64,000 nucleotides of DNA, taken from contig JBAZUF010000003.1 in the NCBI GenBank assembly GCA_041661505.1, forward strand, positions 74,772 through 138,771, read 5' to 3'. Each line of letters opens with the position of its first letter. Within the stretch, counting starts at the first letter, position 1. The notes under the pieces were generated by a model. It ran no database searches, had not been told where the DNA came from, and saw only the letters and a list, made by a program, of their open reading frames with translations. A program made the position numbers and the translations under genes. This stretch comes from Patescibacteria group bacterium (GTDB lineage Bacteria; Patescibacteriota; Patescibacteriia; Patescibacteriales; JBAZCA01). Positions 24,309 to 47,144 of the stretch are shown one piece after another.

Positions 24309-25823
24309 TTATTTTAATAAGATTCTTTCAGCCTCTTTTTTAAAACATTCCCAAAGAGCTTCGATTTCTTCAATTTCTTTAGATCCGTATTTCCAGATAG
24401 TGTTATAGTTTAAACTCACTCCGGAGTCAAAGGCGGCGGCCACGTAATTTTCCAGCCGCCTTTCATATTCGGCGTCAAAATCCATGCCAAGTATTTCCTT
24501 GATTTTCGCGGAAAGAGTAGTAAAATCAGTATGCTTTCGGACGTTGGGAAGCATTAGGGTGGTTTCCAAGTTCCCTAATTGGATAACCGGCTTATTTAGA
24601 AATGCCGCTTCAGCAATCGAAGTCCCGCTCGGGCTGATAATTAAGCTGGCCTTTTTCAAGAAAATTTCATTGGGTATGCGGTAGTCGACAAATTTAACGT
24701 TAATTAACCGGGCAATTTTTTTTATATAAGAAGGAGAGCGCCGGCCGGCCATTCCCGGATGCTCTCGGACCACTAAAGCGTAGTCCGCCGGCAAAGACAT
24801 TGCCGCCAGCCGGGCGGTCTCTATTTGATTGCCGAAATAAGGAGCGATAACATCAATGGTCGCCTCGGGCTGGACCTGCAAGGGGAAATAGACAAATCGC
24901 CCAAGTTTTTCTAAAGGACAGAAAGGGAAACGGTCAAGAAAGCGTTTGTTGCGCAGGTGGCTGAAAAAATCCCGTAAGATAATTTTTGGCGGGCGGAAGT
25001 CGGGAGTTATGCCGGTGCTTTCCAATACATTGATTGGGCGTTTATAGTACCAGTAAAAAATCTGCCTGAAGGGAGAAAGAAATTGCCGGGTTTTTTTGTA
25101 TAAGCCGATGCGGGGCTTATTGATAAGATACTCGGGCGGCTTGAAATTGGCGCGGAATTCACTTATATATTTTCTGGCTTTTTCCCGGCTGGGGCTTTCT
25201 GTTTTTTTCTCATTTAAAAGATTAACTAATTCGTGAAAATAGCCGCCGCCGACATTGTAATTGTTGGCAAAAATTCTTACTCCGCTCACTTTGCTGTCGT
25301 ATAAGGCAATCATCTCCACGCCGCGTTTTTTGGCGTACAAATTTAGCATGATATGCGGAAGGGCGACGAAGTTTGGAGCGATAATCAGTTCGGGCTTGAA
25401 TTGAGTGAAAATAATTTTTAAATATTTATAAACGGCTTGGACGTATAAAAGGATTTCTTCTTCGGGCAAATTGGGGGAAAAGCCGTAATAATATTTTTCT
25501 TTATAAGAGCGGACGTGGTTTCTTAAAGAAAGAACGATTGGCCAAATAGAATTAACCCCGAGCTCGGAGCAAATTTCGCTTATTGAATAAGTTTCGCCGG
25601 AAAGGTAATCGGCTGGACGGCTCATTACATTGTCATTGTCGATTATCAATTGATAGGGAACTTCTTTTTGGCTTCTTGTAAATTCGGTAGTTGTCCGTTT
25701 TAAAGTCAATGCCGCCAGAAAACACCCTTCGTGATGAAGTTTTTTAGCGATTTCGTGTCCAATATAAACTCCCCAATGGCGCTGTTGAACCATTAATATC
25801 CTTTTTCCTTCAAGCTTATTCAT
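24309..25823 (-). CDS. Capsule-synthesis (KpsC/KpsS-like) family protein, candidate ulosonic-acid transferase
   Basis: FVYFPLQVQPEATID..LVVREHPGMAG..LIISPSGTSIAEAAFLNKPVIQLG resembles the Capsule_synth pattern (PLQV..D/E, K/R-x-HP, T-x-x-S/G-x-x-G-x-EA). Paralogous layout to 44601-46037. Confidence 0.45.
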   Translation of the reverse strand: MNKLEGKRILMVQQRHWGVYIGHEIAKKLHHEGCFLAALTLKRTTTEFTRSQKEVPYQLIIDNDNVMSRPADYLSGETYSISEICSELGVNSIWPIVLSLRNHVRSYKEKYYYGFSPNLPEEEILLYVQAVYKYLKIIFTQFKPELIIAPNFVALPHIMLNLYAKKRGVEMIALYDSKVSGVRIFANNYNVGGGYFHELVNLLNEKKTESPSREKARKYISEFRANFKPPEYLINKPRIGLYKKTRQFLSPFRQIFYWYYKRPINVLESTGITPDFRPPKIILRDFFSHLRNKRFLDRFPFCPLEKLGRFVYFPLQVQPEATIDVIAPYFGNQIETARLAAMSLPADYALVVREHPGMAGRRSPSYIKKIARLINVKFVDYRIPNEIFLKKASLIISPSGTSIAEAAFLNKPVIQLGNLETTLMLPNVRKHTDFTTLSAKIKEILGMDFDAEYERRLENYVAAAFDSGVSLNYNTIWKYGSKEIEEIEALWECFKKEAERILLK

Positions 25824-27242: not shown

Positions 27243-28247
27243 ATGCTAACCAGTTTTAATATCCAGGCCGAAAAAATTGAGAAGCTGAAAAGTTGCCGGC
27301 TGTCTGTTTTCGGGCGGCTGGAAAAGGATATCGTTTGTACTTTTTCCGGAAAAACCGCGCTTTCTTTAGTATTAAAATATTTCCGGCAGAATGGAACGCT
27401 TAGCGATAAAACCGGCGAGGTAATGGTTCCGTCTTGGCTTGGGGGGCCGGTTTATATGATAATGCATAAGTTTTGCTTTCCCACAGTTTTTTACAATAAA
27501 AAGGTAAAAGTCCTTATGGCCTACCATCAATGGGGATTTCCTCAAGATATTGATTATCTTAAGGATTTTTGCGAAGATAAAAAGCTCGTTATGATTGAAG
27601 ACTGCGCCCACGCTTTCCGAAGCTATTATAAAGGAAAAAGGCTCGGAACTTTTGGCCAGGCGGCCATCTTTAGCTTTGCCAAATTTTTTTCCTCCATAGC
27701 TGGCGGCGCAATTTATTCTGAAGATAAAAAATTAAAAAAATTTGCAGAAAGGGAGCTTTCCCAAGGCGAAGATAAACTTTCCCGAAAAGCTTTTTACCAT
27801 AATTTTAAGGTCGGCCGAAAACCGGATAAGAATAATTTGATTGAGCTTGAAAGGTATTACGCCGTGTATGACCGGCTGGGGAGATGCCCGGCCTATTCGC
27901 TAAACAAGGTAAAAAGCGAACTGGCGGGAGAAAATAATGCATTGGCCAGGAGGAAGAAGAATTTTTTTCTCCTCCGAGAAGCTTTTAAAAATTGCCGCCG
28001 CGCGGAACTTTTTTCTGCGGATGATATTCTTCCTTGGGCGCTTCCTTTGTTTACCCGCAAGGGCGCGGAAGAAAAAGTCGTCCATTCCCTAAAAAAAATA
28101 AATATTATTTCCGGCGTTTACCACTTTGACGTCAATAAAAATATGCTTAAGCCTAAATTTGAGAGATGTGTCGGGTTGCCGTGCCACCAGGGACTCGGAG
28201 AAAGGGAGCTTGAGGATATAATCAAGGCGGTTAAAGCTAATATTTAA
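27243..28247 (+). CDS. DegT/DnrJ/EryC1/StrS-like PLP enzyme (short form)
   Basis: LVMIEDCAHAFRSYYKGKRLGTFGQAAIFSFAKFFSSIAGGAIY matches the vieDcAha.G..G..G....SF...K...GG core, including a candidate PLP lysine. The N-terminal region is shorter than in typical members. Confidence 0.5.
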   Translation: MLTSFNIQAEKIEKLKSCRLSVFGRLEKDIVCTFSGKTALSLVLKYFRQNGTLSDKTGEVMVPSWLGGPVYMIMHKFCFPTVFYNKKVKVLMAYHQWGFPQDIDYLKDFCEDKKLVMIEDCAHAFRSYYKGKRLGTFGQAAIFSFAKFFSSIAGGAIYSEDKKLKKFAERELSQGEDKLSRKAFYHNFKVGRKPDKNNLIELERYYAVYDRLGRCPAYSLNKVKSELAGENNALARRKKNFFLLREAFKNCRRAELFSADDILPWALPLFTRKGAEEKVVHSLKKINIISGVYHFDVNKNMLKPKFERCVGLPCHQGLGERELEDIIKAVKANI

Positions 28248-28250: not shown

Positions 28251-30050
28251 ATGCCAGTCATAGAAATTTTCAAAAAAATCGCGAGCCTTCTTCGGCTTTT
28301 TAGGCGCGCTTTCGGCCAATATAAAATGGCCATCTCAAGTTTGGTAATATTGAGTTTTTTTAACGGGATTTTTGAAGGCATTGGCATAACGACGATCATC
28401 CCGATTTTTTCCTTTGTCAGCAAAGGCCGGGTGGACAGCCTCGATATAGTTACCAAAACGATCGAAAAGGTCTTTCTTTTTTCAGGCGTACCTTTTACTT
28501 TAAAATATTTACTGATTTTGCTGATCATTCTATTCATTGCCAAGTCAGCCGTACTTTTTTTCGCCAGCTATATTTCTTCTTTAATAACCGCCAAATACGA
28601 AAGAGTAACCCGGGCCCATCTTTTTAAAATAACGCTGGAATCCGATTGGCCATATCTTTCAACCCAAAGACTGGGCTATTTGGATCAAGTAATAACGACC
28701 GACGTTAATACCAGTTCGGGGCTTTTTTTCAATCTAACTAGCTTTATCATCATCGTCACCAAGCTATTGGTTTATATAACTATCGCCATAAATCTTTCTA
28801 TTCCCATTACTCTCATGGCCTTGCTTCTTGGAGTACTAGTTATGTTTGTTTTTAAGCCTCTGTTTTTTAAAAGCAAGCAAATGTCCGAATTGACCGCCAT
28901 GACTTATAAGAAAATGGCCCACTTCATTAACGAAAATATTCTTGGGATGAAGACGGTAAAATCTTTATTGGCCGAGAAAAAAGTAGTCGAAAAAGGGACG
29001 AAATATTTTGATGAGGTAAAGCGGCTGAATATCAAAGCGGCGGTGGCAAAAAATATTACCAACGCCTTGATGCAGCCGATTGGACTGGTTTTTATTATGT
29101 CGCTTTTTGCCTTTTCTTATAAAACCCAGCTTTTTGATTTTGGAACTTTTGCCGTTATAGTCTACGCCATTAACCAAATATTTACCCTAATCCAGATGTT
29201 CCAGGCGCAATTGCACGGAATGGTTTCTGCCGCGCCTTATCTAAAAAGCATTCTAGACTATCAGGACATGACTAAAAATAGCAAAGAGGCGGATGCCGGC
29301 CAAGAGAGATTCAGATTTGATAAATCTTTCAGATTTAACAACGTCGGATTTAGCTATAACAAAGACAAAAAAGTTTTGGACGGGGTCGATTTTTCAATCA
29401 ATAAAGGAAAAATGATTGGCCTTATAGGCGCATCAGGGGCGGGAAAAACCACCATTGTTGATCTTTTACTAAGACTTCTAAGAGCTGAAAAAGGGAAAAT
29501 AACGGTTGATGGAATAGATATTGAGAAAATATCTATAAATGAATGGAGATCTAACGTGGGATATGTTTCGCAGGATATTTTTTTAATGAATGATACGATT
29601 GCCAACAATATCCGTTTTTATGAAGATAGTTTGGCAGAAAATGATATTATTGAAGGGGCTAAAACGGCGAACATCCATGATTTTATTGAAGGTTTGCCCG
29701 ATAAATACGATACGATTGTGGGAGAAAGGGGAATTTTACTTTCCAACGGACAAAGGCAAAGAATCGCCTTGGCCCGGGTTCTGGCTCGAAGGCAAAATTT
29801 GTTAATCCTTGACGAAGCAACAAGCGCCCTGGATAATGAATCGGAAATGCTTATCCAGGAAGCCATAGAAAGATTAAAAGGAAAAATTACAATTTTAGTC
29901 ATCGCCCATCGGCTTTCAACGGTTATGGCGACAGACAAGATTATTGTTTTAGAGAACGGGAAAATTATTGAGGAAGGGAAGCCGGACGATCTTCTAAAAG
30001 ATTGCAAGAGCTATTTTTACAAAGTTTATAACATTCGGGAGCTGGCCTAG
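28251..30050 (+). CDS. ABC exporter, fused permease + ATPase (MsbA/PglK-like)
   Basis: Six predicted TM helices, then Walker A GASGAGKTT, signature LSNGQRQR, Walker B LLILDEATSALD, and H-loop IAHRL. Confidence 0.85.
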   Translation: MPVIEIFKKIASLLRLFRRAFGQYKMAISSLVILSFFNGIFEGIGITTIIPIFSFVSKGRVDSLDIVTKTIEKVFLFSGVPFTLKYLLILLIILFIAKSAVLFFASYISSLITAKYERVTRAHLFKITLESDWPYLSTQRLGYLDQVITTDVNTSSGLFFNLTSFIIIVTKLLVYITIAINLSIPITLMALLLGVLVMFVFKPLFFKSKQMSELTAMTYKKMAHFINENILGMKTVKSLLAEKKVVEKGTKYFDEVKRLNIKAAVAKNITNALMQPIGLVFIMSLFAFSYKTQLFDFGTFAVIVYAINQIFTLIQMFQAQLHGMVSAAPYLKSILDYQDMTKNSKEADAGQERFRFDKSFRFNNVGFSYNKDKKVLDGVDFSINKGKMIGLIGASGAGKTTIVDLLLRLLRAEKGKITVDGIDIEKISINEWRSNVGYVSQDIFLMNDTIANNIRFYEDSLAENDIIEGAKTANIHDFIEGLPDKYDTIVGERGILLSNGQRQRIALARVLARRQNLLILDEATSALDNESEMLIQEAIERLKGKITILVIAHRLSTVMATDKIIVLENGKIIEEGKPDDLLKDCKSYFYKVYNIRELA

Positions 30051-30147
30051 AAATGATGCGGAAATTGCCCAGGCTGATGTTTAAAGAAATGGTGTGAAGG
30101 CAAGTCTGGCGATTAATTGAAGGCGGCTTTTTCGCCGGAAATTTTTT

Positions 30148-31584
30148 ATGTTTAATAAAAACAATAAAGTCTTATTTATAATCCACGATTTATACCAGGA
30201 TGACAACCGGTTTCCGTTAGGCCCGGCCTATTTAGCGGCGGTTTTAAATAAAAACGGCGCGACCGCGGAAGCTTACTGCATGGATGTTTTTCATTTTTCC
30301 AACGATGACCTGGCGCGGCACTTGGATAAAAACGAATATGATTTAATCGGCGTTGGATTTTTAGCCGCCCGCTTTGAAGAAACCGTCCGCGAACTCTGCC
30401 GGGTGATAAACGCCCATAAAAAAAACGCCTGGTTAATACTCGGCGGGCATGGCCCTTCGCCCATCCCGGAATATATTCTTCGGGAAACCGGAGCCGATAT
30501 GATAGCGATAGGAGAGGCAGAAAATACCATTATTGACCTGCTGTCCTGCAAGCTAAATAATGGCAGCCTGGCCGATGTGCCTGGCATAGCCTATCTGGAT
30601 AAAGGGGAGTACCGCTATACCGGTCCGGCCAAAATTGTTAAACAGCTAGATGATGTACCATTTCCTTTGTGGGAAATATTTCCCATGGAAAAATATACGG
30701 CCTGCTCCCAAATGTATAACCAGGGGCCGGAGGAAAAAAGCTTTTCAATAATCGCCGGCCGGGGCTGCATTAACCGCTGTAATTTCTGTTATCGCATGGA
30801 AAAGGGGATAAGGCTGCGGTCTGTTGCGAACATCATGGAAGAATTGAAGCTTCTTTATAGCCAATACGGCGTCAATTGTTTTTTCTTCGAAGACGAGCTA
30901 TTTGTTTTTTCAAAGGCCCGGCTAAAAGAATTTAATGAGGCGTTAAAAGAAGCGGGTTTGAAAATTAAATATTTAGCTAACGCCCGGGTGGACATAATTG
31001 ACGAAGAGTTGGTTGAACTATTGAAAGAAACCGGCTGCCAGTTCGTAAATATCGGCTTTGAATCTTCTAGCGACCGGGTACTGGAACTGATGAAAAAAAA
31101 CGCCACCAGCGACCAAAACATCCGGGCTATGGAAATAATCAATAAAGCCGGCGGAATCGGCATGGGGCTTAATTTTATCTGGAACAATTTAGGCGATACG
31201 GAAGAATCTTTAAAAGAAAACGTGCGTTTGATAAAAAAATATAATACTTATTACCAGTGCCGGACCATCCGCCCGGTTACGCCTTATCCCGGCGCTGACC
31301 TTTATTATACCCTGATTGAAATGGGAAGGATCGAGGGGCCCAAAGATTTCTTTTTGAAGTTTAAAAATTCGGATTTGATTTTTGAAAATGTCATGGATAT
31401 TCCTCTGGAGAAAGCCTATGATTGCCTTTTGGCCGCCAATACCGAGCTAATCCGCGACCATTACAGCCATAAAGGGGAAAACGTAGAGGAAGGCGAAGCG
31501 CTAATCCGCCAGCTAGACGGCCTTTATTCCGGAAAAATTACTACCTTCAGGGGAACGAGACATTACAATCGGGAGGAAAAATAG
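30148..31584 (+). CDS. B12-binding-domain radical SAM protein (paralog 4 of 4)
   Basis: LGPAYLAAVLNKNGATAEAY, IGVGFLA, ILGGHGPS, IAIGEAE, then AGRGCINRCNFCYR. 1-nt gap to the HisF-like gene. Confidence 0.8.
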   Translation: MFNKNNKVLFIIHDLYQDDNRFPLGPAYLAAVLNKNGATAEAYCMDVFHFSNDDLARHLDKNEYDLIGVGFLAARFEETVRELCRVINAHKKNAWLILGGHGPSPIPEYILRETGADMIAIGEAENTIIDLLSCKLNNGSLADVPGIAYLDKGEYRYTGPAKIVKQLDDVPFPLWEIFPMEKYTACSQMYNQGPEEKSFSIIAGRGCINRCNFCYRMEKGIRLRSVANIMEELKLLYSQYGVNCFFFEDELFVFSKARLKEFNEALKEAGLKIKYLANARVDIIDEELVELLKETGCQFVNIGFESSSDRVLELMKKNATSDQNIRAMEIINKAGGIGMGLNFIWNNLGDTEESLKENVRLIKKYNTYYQCRTIRPVTPYPGADLYYTLIEMGRIEGPKDFFLKFKNSDLIFENVMDIPLEKAYDCLLAANTELIRDHYSHKGENVEEGEALIRQLDGLYSGKITTFRGTRHYNREEK

Positions 31585-31585
31585 T

Positions 31586-32347
31586 ATGAAAAATATTCGC
31601 ATCATACCCAGGCTGGACATCAAGGGGCCGAATGTCGTTAAGCCGATTCAGACCGAGGCTTTGCGCGTTGTTGGCAACCCCAAAGAAATGGCCCGGCGCT
31701 ATTACGAGGAAGGGGCTGATGAAATACTCTACCTGGATATCGTAGCGAGCCTTTACCAAAGAAATATTGACTTTGATTTATTAAAATCCGTTACCGAGGA
31801 TATTTTTATTCCCGTAACGGTCGGCGGCGGGATAAGGAGCCTGAACGACATAAATTACGCCTTGAGAGCCGGCGCCGACAAAGTGGCGATCAATACTTAT
31901 CTGGTTAAAAATCCGGCTTTTATTTCTGAAGCAGTTCGCGAGTTCGGTTCGCAGTGTATTGTATTGTTCGTCGAAGCCAAAAAACAGCCGACCGGAATTT
32001 ACGAGGTCTATACCGACGGCGGGCGGGAGCATACCGGGTTAGAAGCAATTGAATGGATCCGCCGGGGAATTGAATTAGGCGCCGGGGAAATTTTAATTTC
32101 TTCCATCGATCGGGACGGAACCCGGCGAGGGTATGATCTTGAATTACTAAAAAAGGTTTCGGAAATTGCGCCAATACCCGTAATCGCCCATGGCGGGGCG
32201 GGAAGCCCCGAATCATTAATCCGGGCGGTGCGGGACGCCAGAGTCGACGCCTTAGCAGTATCTTCAATTTTTCATTATCAAGAATGTTCAATAAATGCCG
32301 TAAAAGAAAATTTAGCCGCGGAAGGAATTAATGTTCGAAAAATATGA
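31586..32347 (+). CDS. Imidazole glycerol phosphate synthase cyclase-subunit homolog (HisF-like, WbuZ-type)
   Basis: RIIPRLDIKG..VVK, GADEILYLDI, VGGGIRS and SIDRDGT are HisF barrel motifs. Located in a glycan operon next to a HisH-like gene and an amidotransferase. Confidence 0.8.
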   Translation: MKNIRIIPRLDIKGPNVVKPIQTEALRVVGNPKEMARRYYEEGADEILYLDIVASLYQRNIDFDLLKSVTEDIFIPVTVGGGIRSLNDINYALRAGADKVAINTYLVKNPAFISEAVREFGSQCIVLFVEAKKQPTGIYEVYTDGGREHTGLEAIEWIRRGIELGAGEILISSIDRDGTRRGYDLELLKKVSEIAPIPVIAHGGAGSPESLIRAVRDARVDALAVSSIFHYQECSINAVKENLAAEGINVRKI

Positions 32348-33000
32348 AGCCGGTAAAAATAGCCATAACCGATTACGGAGTGGGTAATCTTTACAGCCTG
32401 GTTCGGGCGCTGAAATTTTTTAATGCCAGCGCGGAGATTACCGAGGACGCCGATTCGCTTGACGGCTTTGACGGCATAATTCTGCCGGGCGTCGGATCTT
32501 TTGCGGCCGGCATGCGGGGATTAAAAATCAGGGGGCTTGCCGAAAAAATAAAGAAGCTGGCTGGCGAAGGAAAACCGATACTGGGCATATGCCTGGGCGC
32601 CCAGCTATTATTGACCGAAGGGCATGAGTTTGGTACTTTTAACGGATTAGATATTATTAAAGGAAAAGTGATTAAATTCCCTCCGCTGGAAAATAAGGAA
32701 AAAATTCCTCATATCGGCTGGAATAAGCTATCTCTTCCTAAAGGCGGAAGCTGGGGCAAAACTGTGCTGGATGGGATAAAAGAAGAAAGCGACGTCTATT
32801 TTGTCCATTCATATTATCTGGATCCGGAGTCGACCGGCGATGTGCTCGCACTGACTGATTACGGGGGCTTTGCCTTTTGCAGCGCGGTTAAAAAAGGCAA
32901 TGTTTATGGCTGCCAATTCCATCCGGAAAAAAGCGGAAAAGTTGGATTAAAAATAATCGACAATTTTTTAAAAATTTGCGGCGGACAGCTTTCTGTTTAG
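32344..33000 (+). CDS. Glutamine amidotransferase, HisH-like (WbuY-type)
   Basis: IAITDYGVGNL, ILPGVGSF, GICLGAQLL (catalytic Cys), CQFHPEKS (His/Glu). Confidence 0.8.
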   Translation: MKPVKIAITDYGVGNLYSLVRALKFFNASAEITEDADSLDGFDGIILPGVGSFAAGMRGLKIRGLAEKIKKLAGEGKPILGICLGAQLLLTEGHEFGTFNGLDIIKGKVIKFPPLENKEKIPHIGWNKLSLPKGGSWGKTVLDGIKEESDVYFVHSYYLDPESTGDVLALTDYGGFAFCSAVKKGNVYGCQFHPEKSGKVGLKIIDNFLKICGGQLSV

Positions 33001-33046
33001 CTGGAGGGCAATGTAAGGCAGTCTGGTTATAAAGAGAATAAAATAT

Positions 33047-34303
33047 ATGGAACAATTAGAAGCTAAATACGGTCTGCCGGCGGAAGTTAAATTCTGCAAA
33101 AGATGCGTGATTTCCAATCAGCGTCCGAACGCCACGGTTGAATACCAGCATACGGCCGATTCAAAGAAAAAAACCATCCATTTTGACGCGGAAGGGGTTT
33201 GCGACGCTTGCCGGGTGGCGGAAAAGAAAAAAAATGAAATTAACTGGGACGAGCGCGAAGCAGAATTAAAGGCGCTTTGCGACCGGTATCGGAAAAAGGA
33301 CGGCTCTTACGACTGCCTGGTTCCGGGCTCGGGCGGGAAAGACAGCTTCTATACCTCGCACATCCTAAAATATAAGTACGGCATGCATCCTTTGACCTGC
33401 ACTTGGGCGCCGCATATTTATACGCCCTGGGGCTGGAATAATTTTCAAAACTGGATTGGATCCGGCTTTGATAATTATCTTTTTACCCCTAATACCCGGG
33501 TCCATCGCCTTTTAACCCGTCTGGCCGTAGAAAATATCTTTCATCCTTTCCAGCCGTTTATTTTTGGACAAAAATCTTTAGCCCCGAAAATGGCCTTAAC
33601 TTATAATATCCCCTTGGTAATTTACGGCGAACACGAAGCCGAGTACGGCAATCCGATCGCGGACATGGAAAACGCCCGCCGCGACTGGTCGTACTTTACC
33701 GCTAAGGACAAGTCGAAGATATTTTTTGGCGGAGTTTCCGTTGAAGAATTAAAAACCAGGTATGGAATTGAAGAAAATGATTTAGCGCCTTATATGCCGG
33801 CCGATCCGGAGGAACTTACAAAAAACAAAGTTGAAGTGCATTATCTTGGATATTATTTAAAATGGCATCCCCAAGCCTGCTATTATTACGCGGCCGAGCA
33901 CGGCAATTTCCAGGCTTCGCCCGAACGGACGCCCGGCACTTACTCGAAATACAATAGCATTGACGATAGAATCGACGATTTTCATTATTTGACGACTTTC
34001 ATTAAGTTCGGCATCGGCCGGGCGACTTACGACGCTTCCCAGGAAATCCGCTCCGGCGATATCACCCGGGAAGAGGGAGTGGCTTTGGTAAAACGCTATG
34101 ACGGCGAGTTTCCGGAAAGGTTTAGCGAAGAGATTTTTAAGTATTTGAGCGTTTCCGAAAAAGAGTTTCCGGCGGCCTATAAGATGTTTAAAAATCCGGT
34201 TATGACGCGGGAACATTTTATGCAATTGGCCGATCAATTCCGCTCGCCCCATTTATGGAAAAAAGAGAATGGCGAATGGAAACTGCGCTACCAGGTAAAT
34301 TAG
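33047..34303 (+). CDS. N-acetyl sugar amidotransferase (PP-loop ATPase; WbuX/PseA-type)
   Basis: CKRCVISNQRPN..CDAC zinc ribbon, VPGSGGKDS PP-loop, 418 aa. Immediately downstream of the HisF/HisH-like pair. Confidence 0.8.
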   Translation: MEQLEAKYGLPAEVKFCKRCVISNQRPNATVEYQHTADSKKKTIHFDAEGVCDACRVAEKKKNEINWDEREAELKALCDRYRKKDGSYDCLVPGSGGKDSFYTSHILKYKYGMHPLTCTWAPHIYTPWGWNNFQNWIGSGFDNYLFTPNTRVHRLLTRLAVENIFHPFQPFIFGQKSLAPKMALTYNIPLVIYGEHEAEYGNPIADMENARRDWSYFTAKDKSKIFFGGVSVEELKTRYGIEENDLAPYMPADPEELTKNKVEVHYLGYYLKWHPQACYYYAAEHGNFQASPERTPGTYSKYNSIDDRIDDFHYLTTFIKFGIGRATYDASQEIRSGDITREEGVALVKRYDGEFPERFSEEIFKYLSVSEKEFPAAYKMFKNPVMTREHFMQLADQFRSPHLWKKENGEWKLRYQVN

Positions 34304-34338
34304 CAAAGAGTTGCCGGTATTGTTCTTTTTTCGCTGCG

Positions 34339-34396
34339 CCTGCCTGCCGGCAAGGCAGGGAACTCGCCCCGCCTTCAGGCGGGACTCAAATAGTCC
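34339..34396 (+). other. Three consecutive GC-rich hairpins in the 133-nt gap after the amidotransferase gene
   Basis: CCTGCCTG-CCGG-CA(A)GGCAGG (34339-59); CCCGCC-TTCA-GGCGGG (34368-83); GGACT-CAAAT-AGTCC (34382-96), which shares 2 nt with the previous stem. Confidence 0.5.
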
Positions 34397-34436
34397 TCGT
34401 TTCAAAAATAAAATATTTCCGCTAAGCTGATAAAAT

Positions 34437-35420
34437 ATGAGAAACATTTTAGAAGGATATAAAATTTTTAACATTGACCCTAAGCAATTGAGAAATAAGG
34501 ATTTTTTTCGCAATGTTTTGGAATACCGGAAGTTTGTTATGGATAAATTCCCGGACGCGGTAAGAAAAACGGAAGAATTTAAGTGCCTTTTATGCGGAAG
34601 TTCTAATGGGAAAGAGTTTTTAAAATATAAAAATTATCCTTTATTTGAGTGCCTGGATTGCGGTATGGTTTCTCCTAATGTGGATTTAAGCAAGGTGGAT
34701 GAAAAACTGGTTTATGATTCGGAAACCGCTTTGCAGGATGTAAAAAATGATGTGATCAATAATTATGATTACCGGAAAAAAACTTACGCGCCTGAACGGC
34801 TAAATTATATCCTGGAAAAAACCGGTTTAAAAAAAGAAGAGGTGAGGCTTTTGGATGTCGGCTGCGGCCCCGGATATCTCCTTGAGCACTTAAAAGAAAG
34901 CGGGGTTAACTACAAGGGCTTGGAATTGGCCGATTTTTTAGTGGAAATCTGCAAGGGAAGAGGATTGAACGTTGAAAAAAGCGACTTGGCCAATGAGCCG
35001 GACGGCGCCTATAATATCATTACCTTGTTTGATGTTTTGGAACACCTAAGGGTACCGATTGAGATGTTTAAAACGTTGAATAAAAAGCTGGAGGCCGGCG
35101 GCTATGTCCTGGCTTATACTCCCAACATCCACTCTATCGCTTTCCATCTAATGGGCGGTCTGCAAAACAATGTTTATCCCTATATACATTTGTGTTTTTT
35201 TGATCCCCGGTCGCTAGATTACCTGGCAAAAAAAACCGGCTTTGAGGTTCAATCCATCGATTATTACGGCTTGGATGTTATGGACTATTTAAGTTATAAA
35301 AACTACGAAGACGATTATGACTATTTAGGAAAATTAAAGGAATTTATCCCTGTCATGCAGGCGGTTATTGATAAGGGAAAAATAAGCAATCATCAAAGGA
35401 TTATTTTTAAGAAGATTTAA
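34437..35420 (+). CDS. Class I SAM-dependent methyltransferase with N-terminal zinc ribbon
   Basis: CLLCGS..x..CLDCGM ribbon, LLDVGCGPGYLL motif I, ITLFDVLEHL, LEAGGYVLAYTPN. Confidence 0.75.
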   Translation: MRNILEGYKIFNIDPKQLRNKDFFRNVLEYRKFVMDKFPDAVRKTEEFKCLLCGSSNGKEFLKYKNYPLFECLDCGMVSPNVDLSKVDEKLVYDSETALQDVKNDVINNYDYRKKTYAPERLNYILEKTGLKKEEVRLLDVGCGPGYLLEHLKESGVNYKGLELADFLVEICKGRGLNVEKSDLANEPDGAYNIITLFDVLEHLRVPIEMFKTLNKKLEAGGYVLAYTPNIHSIAFHLMGGLQNNVYPYIHLCFFDPRSLDYLAKKTGFEVQSIDYYGLDVMDYLSYKNYEDDYDYLGKLKEFIPVMQAVIDKGKISNHQRIIFKKI

Positions 35421-35459: not shown

Positions 35460-36410
35460 ATGAAAACAACAAATAAGGCTAAAAGAAATATTTGGGTATT
35501 CTGGGCTTTAGGTGAAGCGTCCATCAGCGCCGTCTCGGTATTTATCCTGAAACTGGCCGGACTGGAAATCGGAGTGATTGACCAAGCAATAGTCATGACC
35601 TTGGCCTTAAGCCTGTTCCAGGTAATTTTTAGCGCCTTTACGGTATTTTTCGGCCGGAAGTACCAAGTCAAAAGCAGGGAAATCGGGTGGATGGTCGCTT
35701 TCGGGTTTATTGGATTTTTTATGGATGTGATGGCCTTAACAGTCTTTCAGCTTGGCGGCAGTATAATCATTTTTTCCTTGATTTTCAGCCTGTCAATCAT
35801 ACCAGGAGCGGTTATTGACAGAGTTTGGTTCGGCATCCGTTTCAGCTGGCGACAAATAATAGGAATTATGGTTGGCGCCTTAGCGATTTATTCGATGTTC
35901 GGCTGGCCGTCCTTTGGCGGGAATTTTTCCGGCCAAATTCCTGTCTGGGTTTGGCTTTCGGTCCTGGTTTCCATTGCCGCCGCCCTTAACCAGGGGATAA
36001 GCGTTAAAGTCAGGAACTCCAATCCTCTGGTTATGAATATGGTCGGTGGCGCGGCTATGGTAATCCTGGCTATGGCCGCTTTGATGATTCGCGGCAACTT
36101 GGACCTTATCTATAAAAGCGAACAGCCTTTCCCGCTCTTATGGCAATTATCGTTTGTCCTCGGCCTTTTGGTCGTCGGCCAGTGGACATGCAATCTCTCG
36201 ACTTACCGGTACGGACAGGAGATAACCATCACTTTAAAAAAGTTGGTGGTAAGGAGCGGCTTTCTTTTACTTTCGGCCGGGTTGGGAGCGCTATTTTTTA
36301 GCGAGGCCTTTTCCATTCCCCAAATTGTCGGCATCGTCCTTTTTCTCGTTTCTTTCGCTCTTATTAAAGAAGAGGCTTGGCAGTTTCTTGCCAATAAAGT
36401 TAAGATTTAA
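35460..36410 (+). CDS. Polytopic membrane protein (about 10 TM; DMT/EamA-like transporter or flippase candidate)
   Basis: 316 aa, hydrophobic throughout with a two-halves organisation. One of the few genes with a clear Shine-Dalgarno (GAGGAGAGGAA-ATG). Confidence 0.35.
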   Translation: MKTTNKAKRNIWVFWALGEASISAVSVFILKLAGLEIGVIDQAIVMTLALSLFQVIFSAFTVFFGRKYQVKSREIGWMVAFGFIGFFMDVMALTVFQLGGSIIIFSLIFSLSIIPGAVIDRVWFGIRFSWRQIIGIMVGALAIYSMFGWPSFGGNFSGQIPVWVWLSVLVSIAAALNQGISVKVRNSNPLVMNMVGGAAMVILAMAALMIRGNLDLIYKSEQPFPLLWQLSFVLGLLVVGQWTCNLSTYRYGQEITITLKKLVVRSGFLLLSAGLGALFFSEAFSIPQIVGIVLFLVSFALIKEEAWQFLANKVKI

Positions 36411-36460: not shown

Positions 36461-37195
36461 ATGAAAATTTTAGCCTATATCCCGGCCCGGGCCGGATCAA
36501 AGCGGGTGCCGAATAAAAATATAAAGAATTTTTTGGGCAAGCCTTTGATCGCCTATACGGTTTTACAAGCTAAAGCCTGTTCCATAGTAGACCGGGTTGT
36601 CGTGGATACTGACTCGCCAAAGATCGCGCAGATAGCAAAAAAATACGGGGCCGAGGTTCCTTTTTTGCGGCCCGCTCACTTGGCCACTGATAAATCCCAA
36701 GTAGTTTTCAGCTTGCTAAACGTGTTGAATCGGCTGAAAGATGATGAGGGTTATGTTCCTGATTATGTATTATTACTGCAAACCACCTCGCCGCTCCGGG
36801 AGATGAAGGACATCATGGACGCCTGGAAAATGATTAAGTCAACCGATGCCACAACCGTGCTTACTGTGTGCCCAACCCATCCTAAGCTCTATTATTTGGG
36901 AAAAAATAACGAAACAATTTTGGTTAATGGCTCTGAAGGCAAATCAAATAATACCCAAACTTGGCCGCCGGCCTATCTCTTAAACGGCTGTTTTGTTTAT
37001 ATAATAAAAACGAGCGCGCTTCTAAAAGAAAAAAGGATTATCACCAAAAAAACCAAGGCCGTTGTTTGCCCCCGCTGGCGCTCGGTCGATATCGATACGC
37101 CCGAGGATTGGGTGATGGGCGAATTTTTGTATAAGAACAAAAAGGCGATCGAGAAGCGGATAAAATCCTTGGAAAAAAAAGCGCCCCGGCCATAA
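36461..37195 (+). CDS. neuA: Acylneuraminate (nonulosonate) cytidylyltransferase
   Basis: MKILAYIPARAGSKRVPNKNIKNFLGKPLIAYT is the hallmark CMP-NeuAc synthetase N-terminus. LLLQTTSPLR. Confidence 0.75.
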   Translation: MKILAYIPARAGSKRVPNKNIKNFLGKPLIAYTVLQAKACSIVDRVVVDTDSPKIAQIAKKYGAEVPFLRPAHLATDKSQVVFSLLNVLNRLKDDEGYVPDYVLLLQTTSPLREMKDIMDAWKMIKSTDATTVLTVCPTHPKLYYLGKNNETILVNGSEGKSNNTQTWPPAYLLNGCFVYIIKTSALLKEKRIITKKTKAVVCPRWRSVDIDTPEDWVMGEFLYKNKKAIEKRIKSLEKKAPRP

Positions 37196-37212
37196 AGACC
37201 GGGTTTTTCTTT
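37185..37212 (+). terminator. Terminator-like hairpin overlapping the neuA stop
   Basis: CCCGG-N9-CCGGG (5 GC pairs) followed by TTTTTCTTT. Confidence 0.35.
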
Positions 37213-37271
37213 AGGGGGCGAACACCGGGAAATCCATTGAAAGATGCATATATTAGTGCTAAACTGGATTT

Positions 37272-38225
37272 ATGTCAAAAGTAAAAAAACTGAAAATCGG
37301 CATCATCGGTTTTGGCTCAATCGGCCAAAGGCATTTTAATAATTTAGCCCAGTATAAGCCTGAAATAACGGTTTTTTCAAAGCACAAAGATGTTCTGGGC
37401 CAGGCGGTTAATAACTGGGGAGATTTTAAAAAATTCGGGCCTTTTGACGCGATTTTTGTTACCAATGAAACCCATAAGCATGTGCCGACGATTTTTAAGT
37501 GCCTGGAATTAAAACCCCGGGCAATTTTTGTCGAAAAGCCGATTTCCCATAGTTTGGACGGTTTGGCTAAAGTAATGGAGGAAGCAAAGAAGAAAAAGAT
37601 TAGCCTTTGGGTCGGCTACAATTTTCAGTTTTATAAGCCATTTTTGAAGATAAAAGAAATACTGAAATCGCGCGCGATTGGAAAAATTTATTACGCCCGG
37701 GTTTCAGCCGGGCAGGATCTGCGCGAATGGCGCAAAAGGGATTATAGGTTAAACTATGGAGCAAAAAAATTCCAAGGCGGAGGCGTGATGCTTGATTTGG
37801 TCCATGAGATAAACTACGCCGGCTGGATTTTAGGTGAAAAACTAATTCCCAAGACCGCGCTTGTCAGTAAAGTGTCGAACTTAGAAATTGACACAGAAGA
37901 CTGCGCAGAAAGCATATTTTCGACTAAAGACGGAACCGTGGTTAGCGTGCACCAGGATTATTTGCGCATCCCCGGAAAGCGCGGATTAGAATTAGTGGGA
38001 GAAAAAGGTACTCTCGCTTGGGATTCACAAGCTAATCAAATTTGCGTTTATGGAAGGAAGGGAGTTAAGCGTATTAATATTAATCAGGAAAGAAACGGAA
38101 TGTTTAAGGATGAATTGGAGTTTTTCCTTAACCAGTTAAAAAAGAATAAATTTTTTACCAATATTGAGGAAGCGATTCGGGATGTTAAAAATATTGTCTA
38201 TTTGAAAAAGCATGCGAAAAAATAA
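37272..38225 (+). CDS. Gfo/Idh/MocA family oxidoreductase
   Basis: KIGIIGFGSIGQRHFNNL Rossmann start and VEKPISHS motif. Paralog of 48247-49191. Confidence 0.7.
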   Translation: MSKVKKLKIGIIGFGSIGQRHFNNLAQYKPEITVFSKHKDVLGQAVNNWGDFKKFGPFDAIFVTNETHKHVPTIFKCLELKPRAIFVEKPISHSLDGLAKVMEEAKKKKISLWVGYNFQFYKPFLKIKEILKSRAIGKIYYARVSAGQDLREWRKRDYRLNYGAKKFQGGGVMLDLVHEINYAGWILGEKLIPKTALVSKVSNLEIDTEDCAESIFSTKDGTVVSVHQDYLRIPGKRGLELVGEKGTLAWDSQANQICVYGRKGVKRININQERNGMFKDELEFFLNQLKKNKFFTNIEEAIRDVKNIVYLKKHAKK

Positions 38226-39231
38226 ACTAAAAATTTTACAAATCGGCCTGGGATCGATGGGAAAGAGGCGGATCCGCAACCTGCTTTTTCACGAAATAAA
38301 AGAAAGCCAAATCATCGGTTTTGATCTTGCGGCGCCGAGACGAAAGGAAATGGAAAAATTATTCCCGGAGATAAAGACTTATGGCGATTTTAATTTAGCC
38401 ATGAAAAATGAATCGCCGAACGTTTTTATAATTTCCACTCCGCCAAATCTGCACCACGACTATTTTCTCTTTGCCGCCAAAAATAAAATCAATTTTTTTT
38501 GCGAAGTGCCAACTAATGATAAGGGCTATAAAGAATTGATGCCCAAGCTGTCTAATAAATTCGTCGCCGCCCCGTCCTGCACTTTCCGTTACGTTCCGGC
38601 CATAAAAAAAATAAAAGAGCTTTTGGGCAATGGAATAATTGGAAAGCCTTTGATATTTAATCACTATCTTGGGCAATACCTGCCTGACTGGCATCCGTAT
38701 GAAGATTACCGAAAAGTCTACTTTGCCAAAAAAGAAACCGGCGGGGCTAAAGAAATGCTCCCTTATGAATTAGTCTGGCTAAGCCATATTTTCAAATCCG
38801 AGCCGAAGAAAGCAACCGGCGCGTGCCGTAAAGTGTCGGACCTGGAAATGACGGCGGATGATGTTTATTCAGTGATTGTGCAATTTGAAAACGGCGTTTT
38901 GGGCAACATGATGATTGATTTATTAAATCGGGAAGCCGGCCGGACATTAAGGATTATCGGGACTCAAGGAACGCTGGACTGGGATTGGCTCGGGTATTCA
39001 ATAAGGATTAAGCAGGCAGGAGTTAAAACGGCCAAGCTGATAAATGTAAAAAAAGAAAAAAAATTCAAGCACTATAATACGACCGAAGACATTTATCGGG
39101 AAGAAATGAAAAAGTTTTTAGATGCAGTTTGCGGCAAAAAGAAATATCCTTACAGCTATAAAGAGGATTATCGGATTTTAAAAGTTTACGGCGCGGTAGA
39201 GAAGGGTAATAATTTAAAAGAGCTGGATTAG
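38212..39231 (+). CDS. Gfo/Idh/MocA family oxidoreductase
   Basis: LKILQIGLGSMGKRRIRNL, STPPNLHHDY, FFCEVP. 14-nt overlap with the upstream paralog. Confidence 0.65.
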   Translation: MRKNKLKILQIGLGSMGKRRIRNLLFHEIKESQIIGFDLAAPRRKEMEKLFPEIKTYGDFNLAMKNESPNVFIISTPPNLHHDYFLFAAKNKINFFCEVPTNDKGYKELMPKLSNKFVAAPSCTFRYVPAIKKIKELLGNGIIGKPLIFNHYLGQYLPDWHPYEDYRKVYFAKKETGGAKEMLPYELVWLSHIFKSEPKKATGACRKVSDLEMTADDVYSVIVQFENGVLGNMMIDLLNREAGRTLRIIGTQGTLDWDWLGYSIRIKQAGVKTAKLINVKKEKKFKHYNTTEDIYREEMKKFLDAVCGKKKYPYSYKEDYRILKVYGAVEKGNNLKELD

Positions 39232-39240
39232 GATTAGTAT

Positions 39241-40281
39241 ATGAACAACTTTATCCAAATTGGCAATAGAAAAATCGGAAAAGATTATCCGCCTTTTGTT
39301 ATCGCTGAAATTGGTATTAATCATGAAGGCGATTTTGACAAGGCCGTCCGGATGATTAATGACGCTAAAGGGGCCGGGGCCGACTGCGTGAAATTCCAGT
39401 GCCACGTAGTCGAGGATGAGATGGCGCCGGAAGCGAAGAAAATAATTCCCGCCCATGCGGGAGAGTCGATTTGGGATATAATGGTGCGCTGTGCTTTTCG
39501 AGAAGAAAAAGAGAGGGAGCTGAAAAAATTAGTGGAAGAGGCCGGGATGATTTATCTGTCCACGCCTTTTTCCCGGGCCGCGGCTGACCGATTGGAAAAG
39601 ATGGACGTTTTAGCCTATAAAATCGGGTCGGGGGAATGTAATAATTATCCGCTTTTAAAGCATATTGCCGGTTTTGGAAAACCGATTATTTTATCGACCG
39701 GGATGAATGATATTGAATCCATTAGAAAAAGCGCTGAAATTTTCCGCGACGCTAAATTGCCTTATGCATTATTACACTGCACTTCCATGTATCCCGCGCC
39801 TTATAACAAAGTGCGCCTGGGCGCCTTGGAAGAGATGAGCCGGGAATTTCCGGACGCGGTTATCGGCTTGTCAGATCACAGCTTGGGAATTTATACCTGC
39901 CTTGGCGCGGTTTCCTTGGGGGCCGCAATCCTGGAAAAACATTTTACTTCGGATAAAACTTGGCCCGGTCCGGATATTGCTTTGTCCATTGATCCGGCTG
40001 AATTAAAAGAAATGGTTATCGGCGCGCGGGCTATTTTTGAGGCTCTGGGAGGCAAAAAAGGAATTTTACCCGAAGAGCAGGGGATAATTGATTTTGCCTA
40101 CGCCTGCGTGGTGACAATTAAGGACATAAAAGCCGGAGAAAAATTTTCTCCGGAAAATATTTGGGTCAAGCGGCCGGGCACCGGGGAAATAAAAGCGGTT
40201 GATTATGAAAGTTTATTCGGCAGATCTGCTGCCCGTGATTTGCCGGCCGATGTTCAGGTGAAGAGAAGCGACGTGGTTTAA
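39241..40281 (+). CDS. neuB: N-acetylneuraminate/legionaminate synthase family (NeuB-type) with C-terminal SAF domain
   Basis: PPFVIAEIGINHEGDFDKAVRMI, DCVKFQ, KIGSGE, LSDHS, LEKHFT, and a C-terminal SAF-like region IKAGEKFSPENIWVKRPG. Confidence 0.8.
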   Translation: MNNFIQIGNRKIGKDYPPFVIAEIGINHEGDFDKAVRMINDAKGAGADCVKFQCHVVEDEMAPEAKKIIPAHAGESIWDIMVRCAFREEKERELKKLVEEAGMIYLSTPFSRAAADRLEKMDVLAYKIGSGECNNYPLLKHIAGFGKPIILSTGMNDIESIRKSAEIFRDAKLPYALLHCTSMYPAPYNKVRLGALEEMSREFPDAVIGLSDHSLGIYTCLGAVSLGAAILEKHFTSDKTWPGPDIALSIDPAELKEMVIGARAIFEALGGKKGILPEEQGIIDFAYACVVTIKDIKAGEKFSPENIWVKRPGTGEIKAVDYESLFGRSAARDLPADVQVKRSDVV

Positions 40282-42486: not shown

Positions 42487-42488
42487 CT

Positions 42489-47143: not shown

Positions 47144-47144
47144 T

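Follow-up and report, generated by a model that had tools for sequence, protein, structure and literature searches.

Acetamidino triads are known from several microbes, as WbuX/WbuY/WbuZ in Escherichia coli O145, LfnA/WbpG with HisH2/HisF2 in Pseudomonas aeruginosa, and AglX/AglY/AglZ in Methanococcus maripaludis; their substrates are sugars of the FucNAc or ManNAc(3NAc)A type. In Campylobacter jejuni, the PtmG/PseA amidotransferases (Cj1324, Cj1316c) and the PtmH methyltransferase (Cj1325/6) give rise to Leg5Am7Ac and Leg5AmNMe7Ac. We know of no radical SAM (rSAM) enzyme in the Campylobacter legionaminic acid pathway. The N-acetyl sugar amidotransferase of Legionella pneumophila, LpNASAT (PDB 8WEX), and its HisH/HisF homologues are encoded in the O-antigen locus responsible for poly-5-acetamidino-legionaminic acid. 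Legionella loci contain HisF/HisH homologues and NeuA/B/C-type neighbor genes, and the text of the paper describing them makes no mention of a radical SAM gene (PMC3694923). A search of the accessible literature likewise returned no paper that pairs the Legionella LPS locus with a radical SAM enzyme.

Here we analyzed a 64-kb window from the metagenome-assembled genome of a Patescibacteria group bacterium (GCA_041661505.1, contig JBAZUF010000003.1), a member of the candidate phyla radiation (CPR). The window contains the same three protein families in a saccharide locus, but its gene context and its similarity to Legionella point to a nonulosonic acid (NulO) rather than a FucNAc or ManNAc(3NAc)A-type sugar. 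It shares the HisF/HisH homologues and NeuA/B/C-type neighbors of the Legionella loci. Compared with Legionella, it adds a B12-binding rSAM, a Zn-ribbon methyltransferase and an EamA-like membrane protein, and the host is a CPR bacterium. As in C. jejuni, an amidotransferase is followed by a SAM-dependent methyltransferase, although NulO loci lacking WbuX also carry members of the window's methyltransferase family.

Organization of the locus

Positions 30148-35420 hold five co-directional forward-strand genes encoding a B12-binding rSAM, a HisF-like protein, a HisH-like protein, a WbuX-type amidotransferase and a Zn-ribbon class I methyltransferase. An initial annotation had proposed this module, and its open reading frames agree exactly with ours. 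The junctions it listed, a 1-nt gap between the rSAM and HisF-like genes, an ATGA overlap between the HisF-like and HisH-like genes and a 133-nt gap before the methyltransferase, are all present, and the amidotransferase motifs CKRCV..CDAC and SGGKDS can be read directly in the translations.

The five genes probably make up the first half of a single long operon, co-directional throughout, that serves a legionaminic-acid-type NulO through amidination and a separate rSAM tailoring step. Its order would be ABC exporter, rSAM, HisF-like, HisH-like, WbuX, methyltransferase, CMP-transferase, two oxidoreductases, NeuB-like and NeuC, with a dehydratase further downstream. All of these features lie on the forward strand. 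The ABC exporter (28251-30050) is MsbA/PglK/HepA-like (358 bits on the HepA family and 323 on MsbA, with every score under its equivalog cutoff) and probably exports a glycan or lipid-linked sugar. It is a conserved neighbor directly 5' of the rSAM in L001, L003 and L087. The 97-nt spacer between exporter and rSAM contains a weakly indicated terminator-like hairpin with a T-run (30122-30136); terminator-like sites in the region are no more numerous than in shuffled sequence, and the spacer is only 11 nt in L087. In this 88%-identical relative, the genes from the ABC exporter through NeuB follow one another at junctions of 4-11 nt or across short spacers.

Downstream of the methyltransferase is a polytopic membrane protein (35460-36410) with multiple hydrophobic segments and a weak EamA/DMT resemblance (EamA, 27.7 bits; cutoff 28.2). 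It appears as a variable insert before the CMP-transferase, with a 52% orthologue in L003 and none in L087. The NulO cytidylyltransferase (36461-37195) is LegF/NeuA/PseF-like, scoring 166 bits on the PseF model, below cutoff. Profile searches identified two Gfo/Idh/MocA oxidoreductases at 37272-39231 (37272-38225 and 38212-39231), which are kept 3' of the CMP-transferase in L086 and L087. The NeuB-family synthase (39241-40281) is LegI/NeuB-like, with 374.7 bits on TIGR03569 (cutoff 399.65) and 235 on PseI, and the hydrolyzing UDP-GlcNAc 2-epimerase (40400-41557) is of NeuC/LegG type, with 385 bits on TIGR03568, above the 236 cutoff. Further profile matches were an SDR epimerase/reductase (41569-42486), a second class I methyltransferase (42489-43430) and a PseB/FnlA/LegB-like 4,6-dehydratase (43483-44532). 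The candidate aminotransferase (27243-28247) has a divergent sequence, and we saw no clear LegH acetyltransferase. Similarity to the Legionella enzyme and the neighboring genes are the basis for putatively assigning the sugar as Leg and not as Neu or epi-Leg.

The amidination genes

The N-acetyl sugar amidotransferase (WbuX/NASAT; 33047-34303, 418 aa) lies directly upstream of the CMP-transferase, NeuB-like and NeuC genes. It scores 399 bits on TIGR03573 (cutoff 203) and aligns to the Legionella enzyme 8WEX with 74.5% identity over 416 ungapped residues (774 bits). Its FCKRCV, VCDACR and PGSGGKDS motifs correspond to the family-defining CxxC...GxCxxC Zn tetracysteine site and SGGKDS PP-loop of an ATP pyrophosphatase, both of which are shared with LpNASAT. 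The HisH-like (WbuY-type) class I glutaminase (32344-33000, 218 aa) matches PF00117 and scores 206 bits on TIGR01855. It keeps the Cys/His/Glu catalytic triad, with the nucleophile Cys in GICLG and the His and Glu in FHPE.

The HisF-like (WbuZ-type) barrel (31586-32347, 253 aa) is a proposed ammonia conduit to WbuX. Its ATG at 31586 follows the rSAM stop codon TAG (31582-84) by one nucleotide, and its end overlaps the HisH-like gene at 32344-32347. An alternative reading is that the HisF/HisH pair serves histidine biosynthesis and sits beside the glycan genes by chance. The HisF-like protein just reaches the HisF equivalog cutoff (295.4 bits on TIGR00735; cutoff 294.55) and misses those of WbuZ (270.1 bits on TIGR03572; cutoff 299.7) and AglZ, it shows up to 258 bits of similarity to solved HisF proteins, and PGAP names the gene HisF. 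The AglZ/HisF2 and WbuZ models also match it strongly. However, it has Glu (E130) at the catalytic Asp130 position, where solved HisF proteins have an AIDAK/R motif and homologues linked to WbuX carry E, V or Q. The gene is also translationally coupled inside a glycan operon, right before WbuX, and NulO loci from many phyla contain this triad as well. Profile annotation found no other his genes in the 64-kb window, and CPR bacteria generally lack amino acid biosynthesis. Together these observations make a histidine role very improbable.

The earlier proposal that the triad forms an acetamidino sugar is thus well supported by the WbuX score and motifs, the 74.5% identity to the Legionella enzyme, the HisH triad and the NulO neighbors. 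By sequence, the three genes form a WbuZ/WbuY/WbuX-type acetamidino system for a legionaminic-acid-type sugar, and this N-acetyl to acetamidino system is itself of an ordinary, already known kind.

The methyltransferase and the 133-nt gap

The class I SAM methyltransferase (34437-35420, 327 aa) scores 91 bits on Methyltransf_23 and has an N-terminal CLLC...CLDC motif, consistent with a CxxC...CxxC Zn-ribbon. The family occurs mostly in CPR bacteria. Homologues abut WbuX in L003, L086 and L087 and are also found in NulO loci with no WbuX within the fetched DNA (L083, L084). What accompanies them constantly is a NeuB of the subtype seen in the window, and not WbuX. The protein is a NulO-locus methyltransferase. 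Because it occurs also without WbuX, an N-methyl-acetamidino product is possible but unproven.

The initial annotation called the gap before this gene structured, which our tests did not uphold. The GC-rich spacer (34304-34436) has short hairpins, but its minimum free energy of -34.1 kcal/mol is close to the shuffle mean of -33.4 (z = -0.20). A scan found no terminator inside it, and there was no Rfam match at E<=1. The spacer is missing from the syntenic relatives L003 and L087, where just ~10 nt separate WbuX from the methyltransferase. The gap is a lineage-specific insertion that shows no sign of function in the fold, terminator or Rfam tests.

The radical SAM protein and its genomic context

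The first gene of the module (30148-31584, 478 aa) encodes a B12-binding-domain rSAM protein of class B architecture, with PF02310 (52 bits) and PF04055 (76 bits) domains and the cluster motif CINRCNFC (CxxxCxxC). The class B enzymes AprD4 (6FD2), OxsB (5UL2-4), TsrM (6WTE), MgmA (9CCB) and CysS (9N1B-D) have the same N-terminal Rossmann B12-type domain and, after it, a partial TIM barrel with CxxxCxxC. Foldseek placed the protein in this fold with TM scores of 0.6-0.75 to these five. AprD4 was the top match both by fold (TM 0.71/0.75) and by sequence (E 3e-21). HMM matches to the group reach E 1e-20. Identity to the five is just 15-22%, and the NulO-operon niche is unlike that of any characterized class B member. 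No NCBIfam cutoff was reached, the best match being BchE (118 bits against 481); the top matches are mostly C- or P-methyltransferases. Residues invariant in the family are found at the C-terminal ends of the predicted Rossmann strands, and the ligand face of this domain is invariant.

The rSAM family is large (55-88% identity), with 409 confirmed matches among 185,579 species-representative genomes. No curated family model, informative database name or paper in the searchable literature ties it to nonulosonic acids, and to that extent the earlier description of the radical step as undescribed is borne out. We sampled 80 rSAM loci from the species-representative genomes using two peptide patterns, so percentages describe this sample, and defined well-flanked loci as those in which each flank extended for 7 kb or more (24 close-tier, 22 distant-tier). 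NeuB or a CMP-transferase was present in 23/24 close-tier and 21/22 distant-tier well-flanked loci (~95%), the CMP-transferase being the commonest neighbor of the family. WbuX was present in 11/24 (46%) and 5/22 (23%), respectively. More than one B12-rSAM was found in 16 of the 80 loci, and the window itself has three others, among ordinary glycosyltransferase genes.

A survey of B12-rSAM genes beside or fused to wbuZ-like genes had been suggested. Adjacency was found, with a triad gene directly next to the rSAM in 10/80 loci and within the fetched flanks in 22/80, but fusion was not, in any of the 80. The rSAM-HisF-HisH order is shared by L002, L003, L016, L048, L078 and L087, and the rSAM-HisF junction recurs across lineages, at 1 nt here and 12-81 nt in the first five of these loci. 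A sister rSAM family turns up at different places within canonical LegB-LegC-LegH-LegI-LegG-PtmE-LegF operons and is frequently the one gene added to them. The earlier view, in which close linkage to HisF binds the rSAM to amidination, therefore needs revising. Because NeuB or the CMP-transferase is near-constant, the triad is a minority neighbor and the sister family is often the only addition to Leg operons, we infer that the rSAM is a NulO tailoring enzyme rather than an amidination accessory.

Alternative roles of the radical SAM protein

Coupling to WbuXYZ would mean that the rSAM modifies the acetamidino group or needs an amidinated sugar, for example by C-methylating the amidine methyl. 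The 1-nt gap, the shared gene order and the convergent rSAM/WbuX adjacency in archaeal L008, L015, L020 and L039 all fit such a role, and a functional link to the amidine keeps some probability because the rSAM-HisF junction recurs and WbuX is commoner near the close tier. It is nevertheless unlikely, since 58/80 loci have no triad gene in the fetched flanks, and 13/24 well-flanked close-tier loci have no WbuX, against 23/24 with NeuB or a CMP-transferase. To our knowledge, the characterized WbuX systems (E. coli O145, P. aeruginosa, C. jejuni, Legionella and M. maripaludis) work without any rSAM. Still less probable is a substrate other than the NulO, for instance a different sugar in the glycan, a lipid carrier or a protein, with co-localization arising from the clustering of glycan genes. 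The additional B12-rSAMs in the window and in other loci would agree with this, but the specific partners of the family are NeuB and the CMP-transferase, often immediately adjacent, and the sister-family gene sits between core Leg genes.

For a NulO-tailoring rSAM, the chemistry could also be non-methylating and AprD4-type, that is, dehydration/deoxygenation, oxidation or epimerization of a NulO intermediate, with the N-terminal domain a cofactor-less relic. AprD4, a sugar 1,2-diol dehydratase that is not known to use cobalamin, is the top match and also acts on an amino sugar, and possible partner SDR or Gfo-type reductases lie near many loci (FabG-like c8 near 33% of the close tier; two Gfo in the window). 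Only the rSAM core aligns to AprD4, however, whereas the N-terminal domain aligns in sequence with the cobalamin enzymes OxsB and CysS. The AprD4 family model gives 75 bits against a cutoff of 500, the Rossmann ligand face is invariant, several sister-family Leg operons have no extra reductase, and legionaminic acid has no vicinal diol. We consider AprD4-type chemistry possible but doubtful, and favor cobalamin-dependent C-methylation. GenK, GenD1 and MoeK5 are class B rSAM sugar C-methylases. Counting against C-methylation, no natural NulO known to us carries a C-methyl branch.

Proposed pathway

In the well-supported part of the pathway, glutamine would be hydrolyzed by HisH, and the HisF-like barrel, no longer serving histidine synthesis, would relay ammonia to WbuX. 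WbuX with ATP (PP-loop) would then activate the 5-N-acetyl carbonyl of the sugar to give the 5-acetamidino group, as in Legionella Leg5Am7Ac. More tentatively, the Zn-ribbon methyltransferase may place an N- or O-methyl on the same sugar, N-methyl-acetamidino being one option. The rSAM would carry out a tailoring step of its own in the NulO pathway, independent of amidination, most likely working by itself on the NulO or its nucleotide-sugar precursor. As its chemistry we prefer a cobalamin-dependent transfer of methyl to an unactivated carbon, which would belong to the sugar skeleton or to an N-acyl methyl. The rSAM is a member of a large unnamed family in the sialic-acid-like sugar operons of hundreds of microbes.

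Organization of the five-gene module

The module comprises five open reading frames on the plus strand, which Pfam and NCBIfam assign to a radical SAM protein with a B12-binding domain (rSAM; 30148-31584, 478 aa), a HisF-like protein (31586-32347, 253 aa), a HisH-like protein (32344-33000, 218 aa), a WbuX-type amidotransferase (33047-34303, 418 aa), and a class I methyltransferase (34437-35420, 327 aa). Our ORF calls reproduce the coordinates of the initial annotation exactly, along with its junctions: 1 nt separates the rSAM stop from the HisF-like start, the HisF-like and HisH-like genes overlap at ATGA, and a 133-nt spacer precedes the methyltransferase. A spacer of 46 nt lies between the HisH-like and WbuX genes. 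The motifs it had named (CKRCV, CDAC, and SGGKDS, as well as the N-terminal CxxC...CxxC ribbon of the methyltransferase) are all found in the translations. The HisF-HisH-WbuX order recurs in L003, L086, and L087, three homologous loci fetched from elsewhere. In L087, the closest relative at 88% identity, the genes for the ABC exporter, rSAM, HisF, HisH, WbuX, methyltransferase, CMP-transferase, two Gfo proteins, and NeuB form a single tight operon in that order.

The GC-rich 133-nt spacer (34304-34436) had been described as structured, which our analysis does not support. Shuffled versions of the sequence fold just as well (z = -0.20), a terminator scan found nothing inside it, and it has no match in Rfam. 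The window contains no second copy of its main hairpin. In L003 and L087, the WbuX and methyltransferase genes are only ~10 nt apart and the spacer is missing. On these results, we rejected a regulatory RNA at this position. The EamA-like membrane-protein gene at 35460-36410 is missing in L087, where the methyltransferase and CMP-transferase genes overlap by 4 nt, and L003 has the EamA-like gene without the spacer. Both the spacer and the EamA-like gene are recent, lineage-specific insertions into the operon.

The amidination triad

The acetamidino function proposed for the triad is supported. WbuX scores 398.9 bits on the NCBIfam model TIGR03573, about twice the cutoff of 203.2, and shares 74.5% identity, in a gap-free alignment, with the crystallised N-acetyl sugar amidotransferase of Legionella pneumophila (NASAT; 8WEX). 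The PP-loop SGGxDS is present in the translation as PGSGGKDS, and the tetracysteine zinc motif CXXCXn[GN]XCXXC is present as FCKRCV ... EGVCDAC, matching 8WEX column for column. These two motifs are given as the signatures of the NASAT family, and ATP-dependent conversion of N-acetyl to acetamidino groups has not been directly demonstrated even for the 8WEX enzyme (PMC10607449). As a further member of the well-known WbuXYZ, NASAT, and AglXYZ system, the triad would by itself be a matter of routine annotation, and the public annotation already gives WbuX its correct name.

The gapless similarity of WbuX to the Legionella enzyme is far above what would be expected from housekeeping genes, which are much more divergent between the two phyla, and this reads as a clear sign of cross-phylum transfer of tailoring genes for nonulosonic acids (NulOs). 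In L. pneumophila, the O-antigen polymer is built from 5-acetamidino-legionaminic acid, or from the epimer in non-serogroup-1 strains. Based on this polymer and on the WbuX similarity, the substrate in the window is likely a sugar of the legionaminic acid type, produced by the genes further downstream.

The HisH-like protein scores 205.9 bits on TIGR01855 (cutoff 105.4) and has an intact Cys-His-Glu triad (GICLG and FHPE). The HisF-like protein barely reaches the cutoff of the NCBIfam HisF model (295.4 vs 294.55) and falls under both amidation-barrel cutoffs, with 270.1 against 299.7 for WbuZ (TIGR03572) and 206.3 against 310 for AglZ/HisF2 (NF038364). However, at the site of the catalytic Asp130, where solved HisF proteins read AIDAK/R, the window protein has Glu (FVEAKK), and other HisF homologues linked to WbuX have E, V, or Q at this position. 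There are no other his genes within the 64-kb window. Genomic context and E130 led us to reject histidine biosynthesis for this pair; given this residue, the gene order, the translational coupling, and a host from the candidate phyla radiation (CPR), such a role is very unlikely.

An unnamed radical SAM family in nonulosonic acid loci

In a protein search, homologues of the rSAM at E<1e-10 number more than 1,800; the best 120 are all ~475 aa long, 55-88% identical, and carry generic names only. The rSAM reaches no curated NCBIfam cutoff. We then scanned one genome per prokaryotic species, obtaining 409 confirmed matches, and fetched 80 loci. The close tier (46 loci, 45-68% identity to the rSAM) comes from CPR bacteria, DPANN and methanogenic archaea, Desulfobacterota, Planctomycetota, Omnitrophota, and Dehalococcoidia. 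The distant tier (34 loci, 37-41% identity to the window rSAM) represents a sister family, whose hosts include cultured Desulfobacter, Geomonas, Wukongibacter, and Frackibacter, as well as Prochlorococcus and Pelagibacteraceae (SAR11) single-cell genomes. At E<1e-60, this sister family comprises more than 4,200 proteins, most of them exactly 462 aa long, with 67-73% identity across phyla and no name anywhere. The matches listed for it are unnamed proteins from MAGs and a few isolates (Desulfobacter, Iocasia) lacking a known glycan structure, with no cultured carrier of a solved NulO structure among them. Neither curated models nor informative database names were found to tie the rSAM family to NulOs, nor was any paper in a searchable literature set that lacks most subscription-journal articles.

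Neighboring genes were determined by unbiased ORF clustering and counted in those loci for which each flank spans 7 kb or more (24 close, 22 distant). A NeuB-type synthase or CMP-transferase lies near the rSAM in 23 of the 24 close-tier loci and 21 of the 22 distant-tier loci, and WbuX in 11 and 5, respectively. The initial annotation had read the rSAM as an extra tailoring step and had suggested surveying its fusion or adjacency to wbuZ-like genes. The coupling we observed is to the NulO pathway rather than to WbuZ: an orthologue of WbuX, HisH, or HisF occurs in the fetched flanks of only 22/80 loci and abuts the rSAM in 10/80, in three different arrangements, and no fusion to a WbuZ-like gene was seen among the 120 homologues listed or in the 80 loci. 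We conclude that the rSAM is a predicted tailoring enzyme of the NulO pathway. Its tight coupling to the HisF-like gene in the window comes from the way the operon is packed, or at most from a combination that occurs often, not from dependence on amidination.

The sister-family rSAM is found at varying positions in otherwise canonical legionaminic acid (Leg) operons (LegB, LegC, LegH-like, LegI, LegG, PtmE-like, LegF), and is often the sole extra gene, as in loci L050, L051, L056, L060, L063, L070, and L073 (at ~10001-11380 in most of these; 1498-2889 in L073). We also considered whether it stands in for a missing core Leg enzyme and rejected this, as LegB-like and LegC-like genes are each present in 73% of well-flanked sister-family loci, beside other core Leg genes. 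Compared with known legionaminic-type pathways, the operon in the window has an additional, uncharacterised class B radical SAM enzyme.

A recurrent cassette surrounds the rSAM in five loci from Syntrophorhabdus, Deltaproteobacteria, and Nitrospirae MAGs (L019, L022, L025, L026, and L030, at ~6000-16000). It runs from a CMP-transferase through a HemL-like class III aminotransferase, a VOC/glyoxalase-fold protein, the rSAM, and a small methyltransferase-like protein to one or two FabG-like SDRs. The HemL-like gene is also present in the pseudaminic acid (Pse) cluster of the window (50053-51342) and in Legionella non-serogroup-1 loci (PMC3694923).

Predicted chemistry of the radical SAM enzyme

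The cluster motif CxxxCxxC (C207-x3-C211-x2-C214) is invariant in the rSAM family, and the radical SAM domain scores 76 bits on PF04055. An N-terminal Rossmann domain of the B12-binding type is also present (PF02310, 52.1 bits vs a cutoff of 32.1). In searches against the PDB, the radical SAM core is closest by sequence to AprD4, and two cobalamin enzymes, OxsB and CysS, align over a region that takes in the N-terminal domain. The AlphaFold model (pLDDT 80) gives TM scores of 0.6-0.75 against AprD4, OxsB, TsrM, MgmA, and CysS. Family-invariant residues in this predicted model cluster at the C-terminal ends of the Rossmann strands, the usual cofactor face, which argues for a bound ligand. AprD4 has the class B architecture yet is not known to use cobalamin, so the architecture alone is no proof of cobalamin use.

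Several sister-family operons encode no additional reductase or other partner. This favors a self-sufficient reaction, such as cobalamin-dependent C-methylation, for which GenK, GenD1, and MoeK5 are precedents on sugars, and disfavors a two-enzyme deoxygenation of the AprD4/AprD3 type. By inference, we give methylation slightly less than even odds. AprD4-like or other non-methylating radical chemistry would be in line with AprD4, a sugar 1,2-diol dehydratase, being the nearest sequence match of the core. However, the rSAM scores only 75.5 bits on the AprD4 family model NF033070 (cutoff 500), with only residues 189-406 aligning, and legionaminic acid has no vicinal diol. We judge this chemistry rather unlikely, and leave what remains to some other reaction. 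For the families as a whole, we tentatively propose, at somewhat less than even confidence, that the rSAM and its 462-aa sister family are dedicated NulO tailoring enzymes that make a carbon-centred modification not previously reported in sialic-acid-like sugars. Such a modification could be, for example, a C-methyl group on the sugar skeleton or an extension of the N-acyl chain.

The zinc-ribbon methyltransferase

The methyltransferase (34437-35420) has ~160 homologues at E<1e-20, mostly in CPR bacteria, and a metagenome scan yielded two short contigs only. From the protein search and contig look-ups, the gene was always located in NulO loci in the contexts examined. It is directly 3' of WbuX in the window, L003, L086, and L087, and 3' of a different B12-rSAM in L085. 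In L083 and L084 it occurs with NeuB, NeuC, and CMP-transferase genes, with no WbuX within ~7 kb. Campylobacter jejuni PtmH (Cj1325/6) N-methylates acetimidoyl-legionaminic acid; obligate co-occurrence of methyltransferase and amidotransferase, as a PtmH-type reading would have it, does not hold in these two loci, and the window protein itself shows the generic class I methyltransferase fold. The gene that most consistently accompanies the methyltransferase encodes a NeuB of the same subtype as in the window (56-69% identity), not WbuX. An N-methyl-acetamidino product is therefore possible, but the data fit equally well with O- or N-methylation that does not involve the amidine.

In L084 (1-3541), a 30-kb metagenomic contig, the methyltransferase homologue is in a NulO cluster beside two Maf-type (MptE-like) flagellin glycosyltransferase genes; an identical homologue is also recorded on a 3.1-Mb contig. 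Based on this proximity, the same methylated NulO is probably attached to flagellin in some lineages.

The wider glycan locus

Exact protein matches place the window in a Patescibacteria (CPR) MAG, on a 247-kb contig. A single glycan locus fills nearly all of the window up to ~57 kb, with housekeeping genes starting at 57367. It holds glycosyltransferases, an asparagine-synthase-like protein, a pyruvyl transferase, an ABC exporter, a priming phosphotransferase, and at least seven class I methyltransferases. The Leg/Neu-type NulO set (36461-44532) consists of a CMP-transferase, two Gfo/Idh/MocA oxidoreductases, a NeuB-like protein, NeuC, an SDR, a methyltransferase, and a PseB/LegB-like dehydratase. 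At 46052-55700 lies another complete NulO pathway, of the Pse type, in which PseB, PseC, and PseI each exceed the respective cutoff. Further genes of this set encode a formyltransferase, a HemL-like aminotransferase, a WbqC-like protein, a SPASM rSAM, and a xylose-isomerase-like TIM-barrel protein, a content that suggests Pse modified by formyl or by some other unusual N-acyl group.

The window encodes four rSAMs with B12 domains, at 240-1652 (+), 14173-15588 (+), 20496-23159 (-), and 30148-31584 (+), which share 27-31% identity with one another, and a fifth radical SAM protein of the SPASM/twitch type at 52050-53192 (+). In this one locus of a small-genome CPR bacterium, the load of radical and methyl chemistry is unusually heavy for a surface glycan. 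The 887-aa product of 20496-23159 joins a B12-binding radical SAM module at its N-terminus to a C-terminal domain of ~400 aa, which weakly matches (alpha/alpha)6-barrel carbohydrate enzymes (GH127, GH88, pectate lyase, and glucuronyl C5-epimerase); the protein may thus combine radical chemistry with a sugar-binding domain of its own. Three large ORFs of 735, 601, and 504 aa (2851-5058, 15603-17408, and 24309-25823 (-), respectively) have no Pfam match at E<=0.01; membrane proteins of the polymerase, flippase, or ligase type are possible identities for these, as are novel enzymes.

Implications

Flagella, S-layers, capsules, and LPS all carry nonulosonic acids (sialic, legionaminic, and pseudaminic), and host mimicry, phage recognition, and contact between cells are governed by these sugars. 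The diversity known so far consists of N-acyl, O-acyl, and N/O-methyl variation. A conserved rSAM in the NulO operons of hundreds of species implies a sugar modification that mass-spectrometric surveys may see but not assign, and it would give class B radical SAM enzymology a new substrate class. Thousands of sequences from the rSAM and sister families are spread across CPR, DPANN, methanogens, Desulfobacterota, Planctomycetota, Omnitrophota, Prochlorococcus, and SAR11; if our proposal is true, they would mark a new, widespread class of NulOs in uncultivated microbes. The CPR host here, presumably dependent on attachment to other cells, devotes ~55 kb to making surface glycans, with a Legionella-like amidotransferase obtained from another phylum among the genes, and this investment points to the importance of surface sugar chemistry for an episymbiotic lifestyle. 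With the rSAM family there is a well-defined target, present in many lineages, whose study could uncover a new modification of sialic-acid-like sugars.
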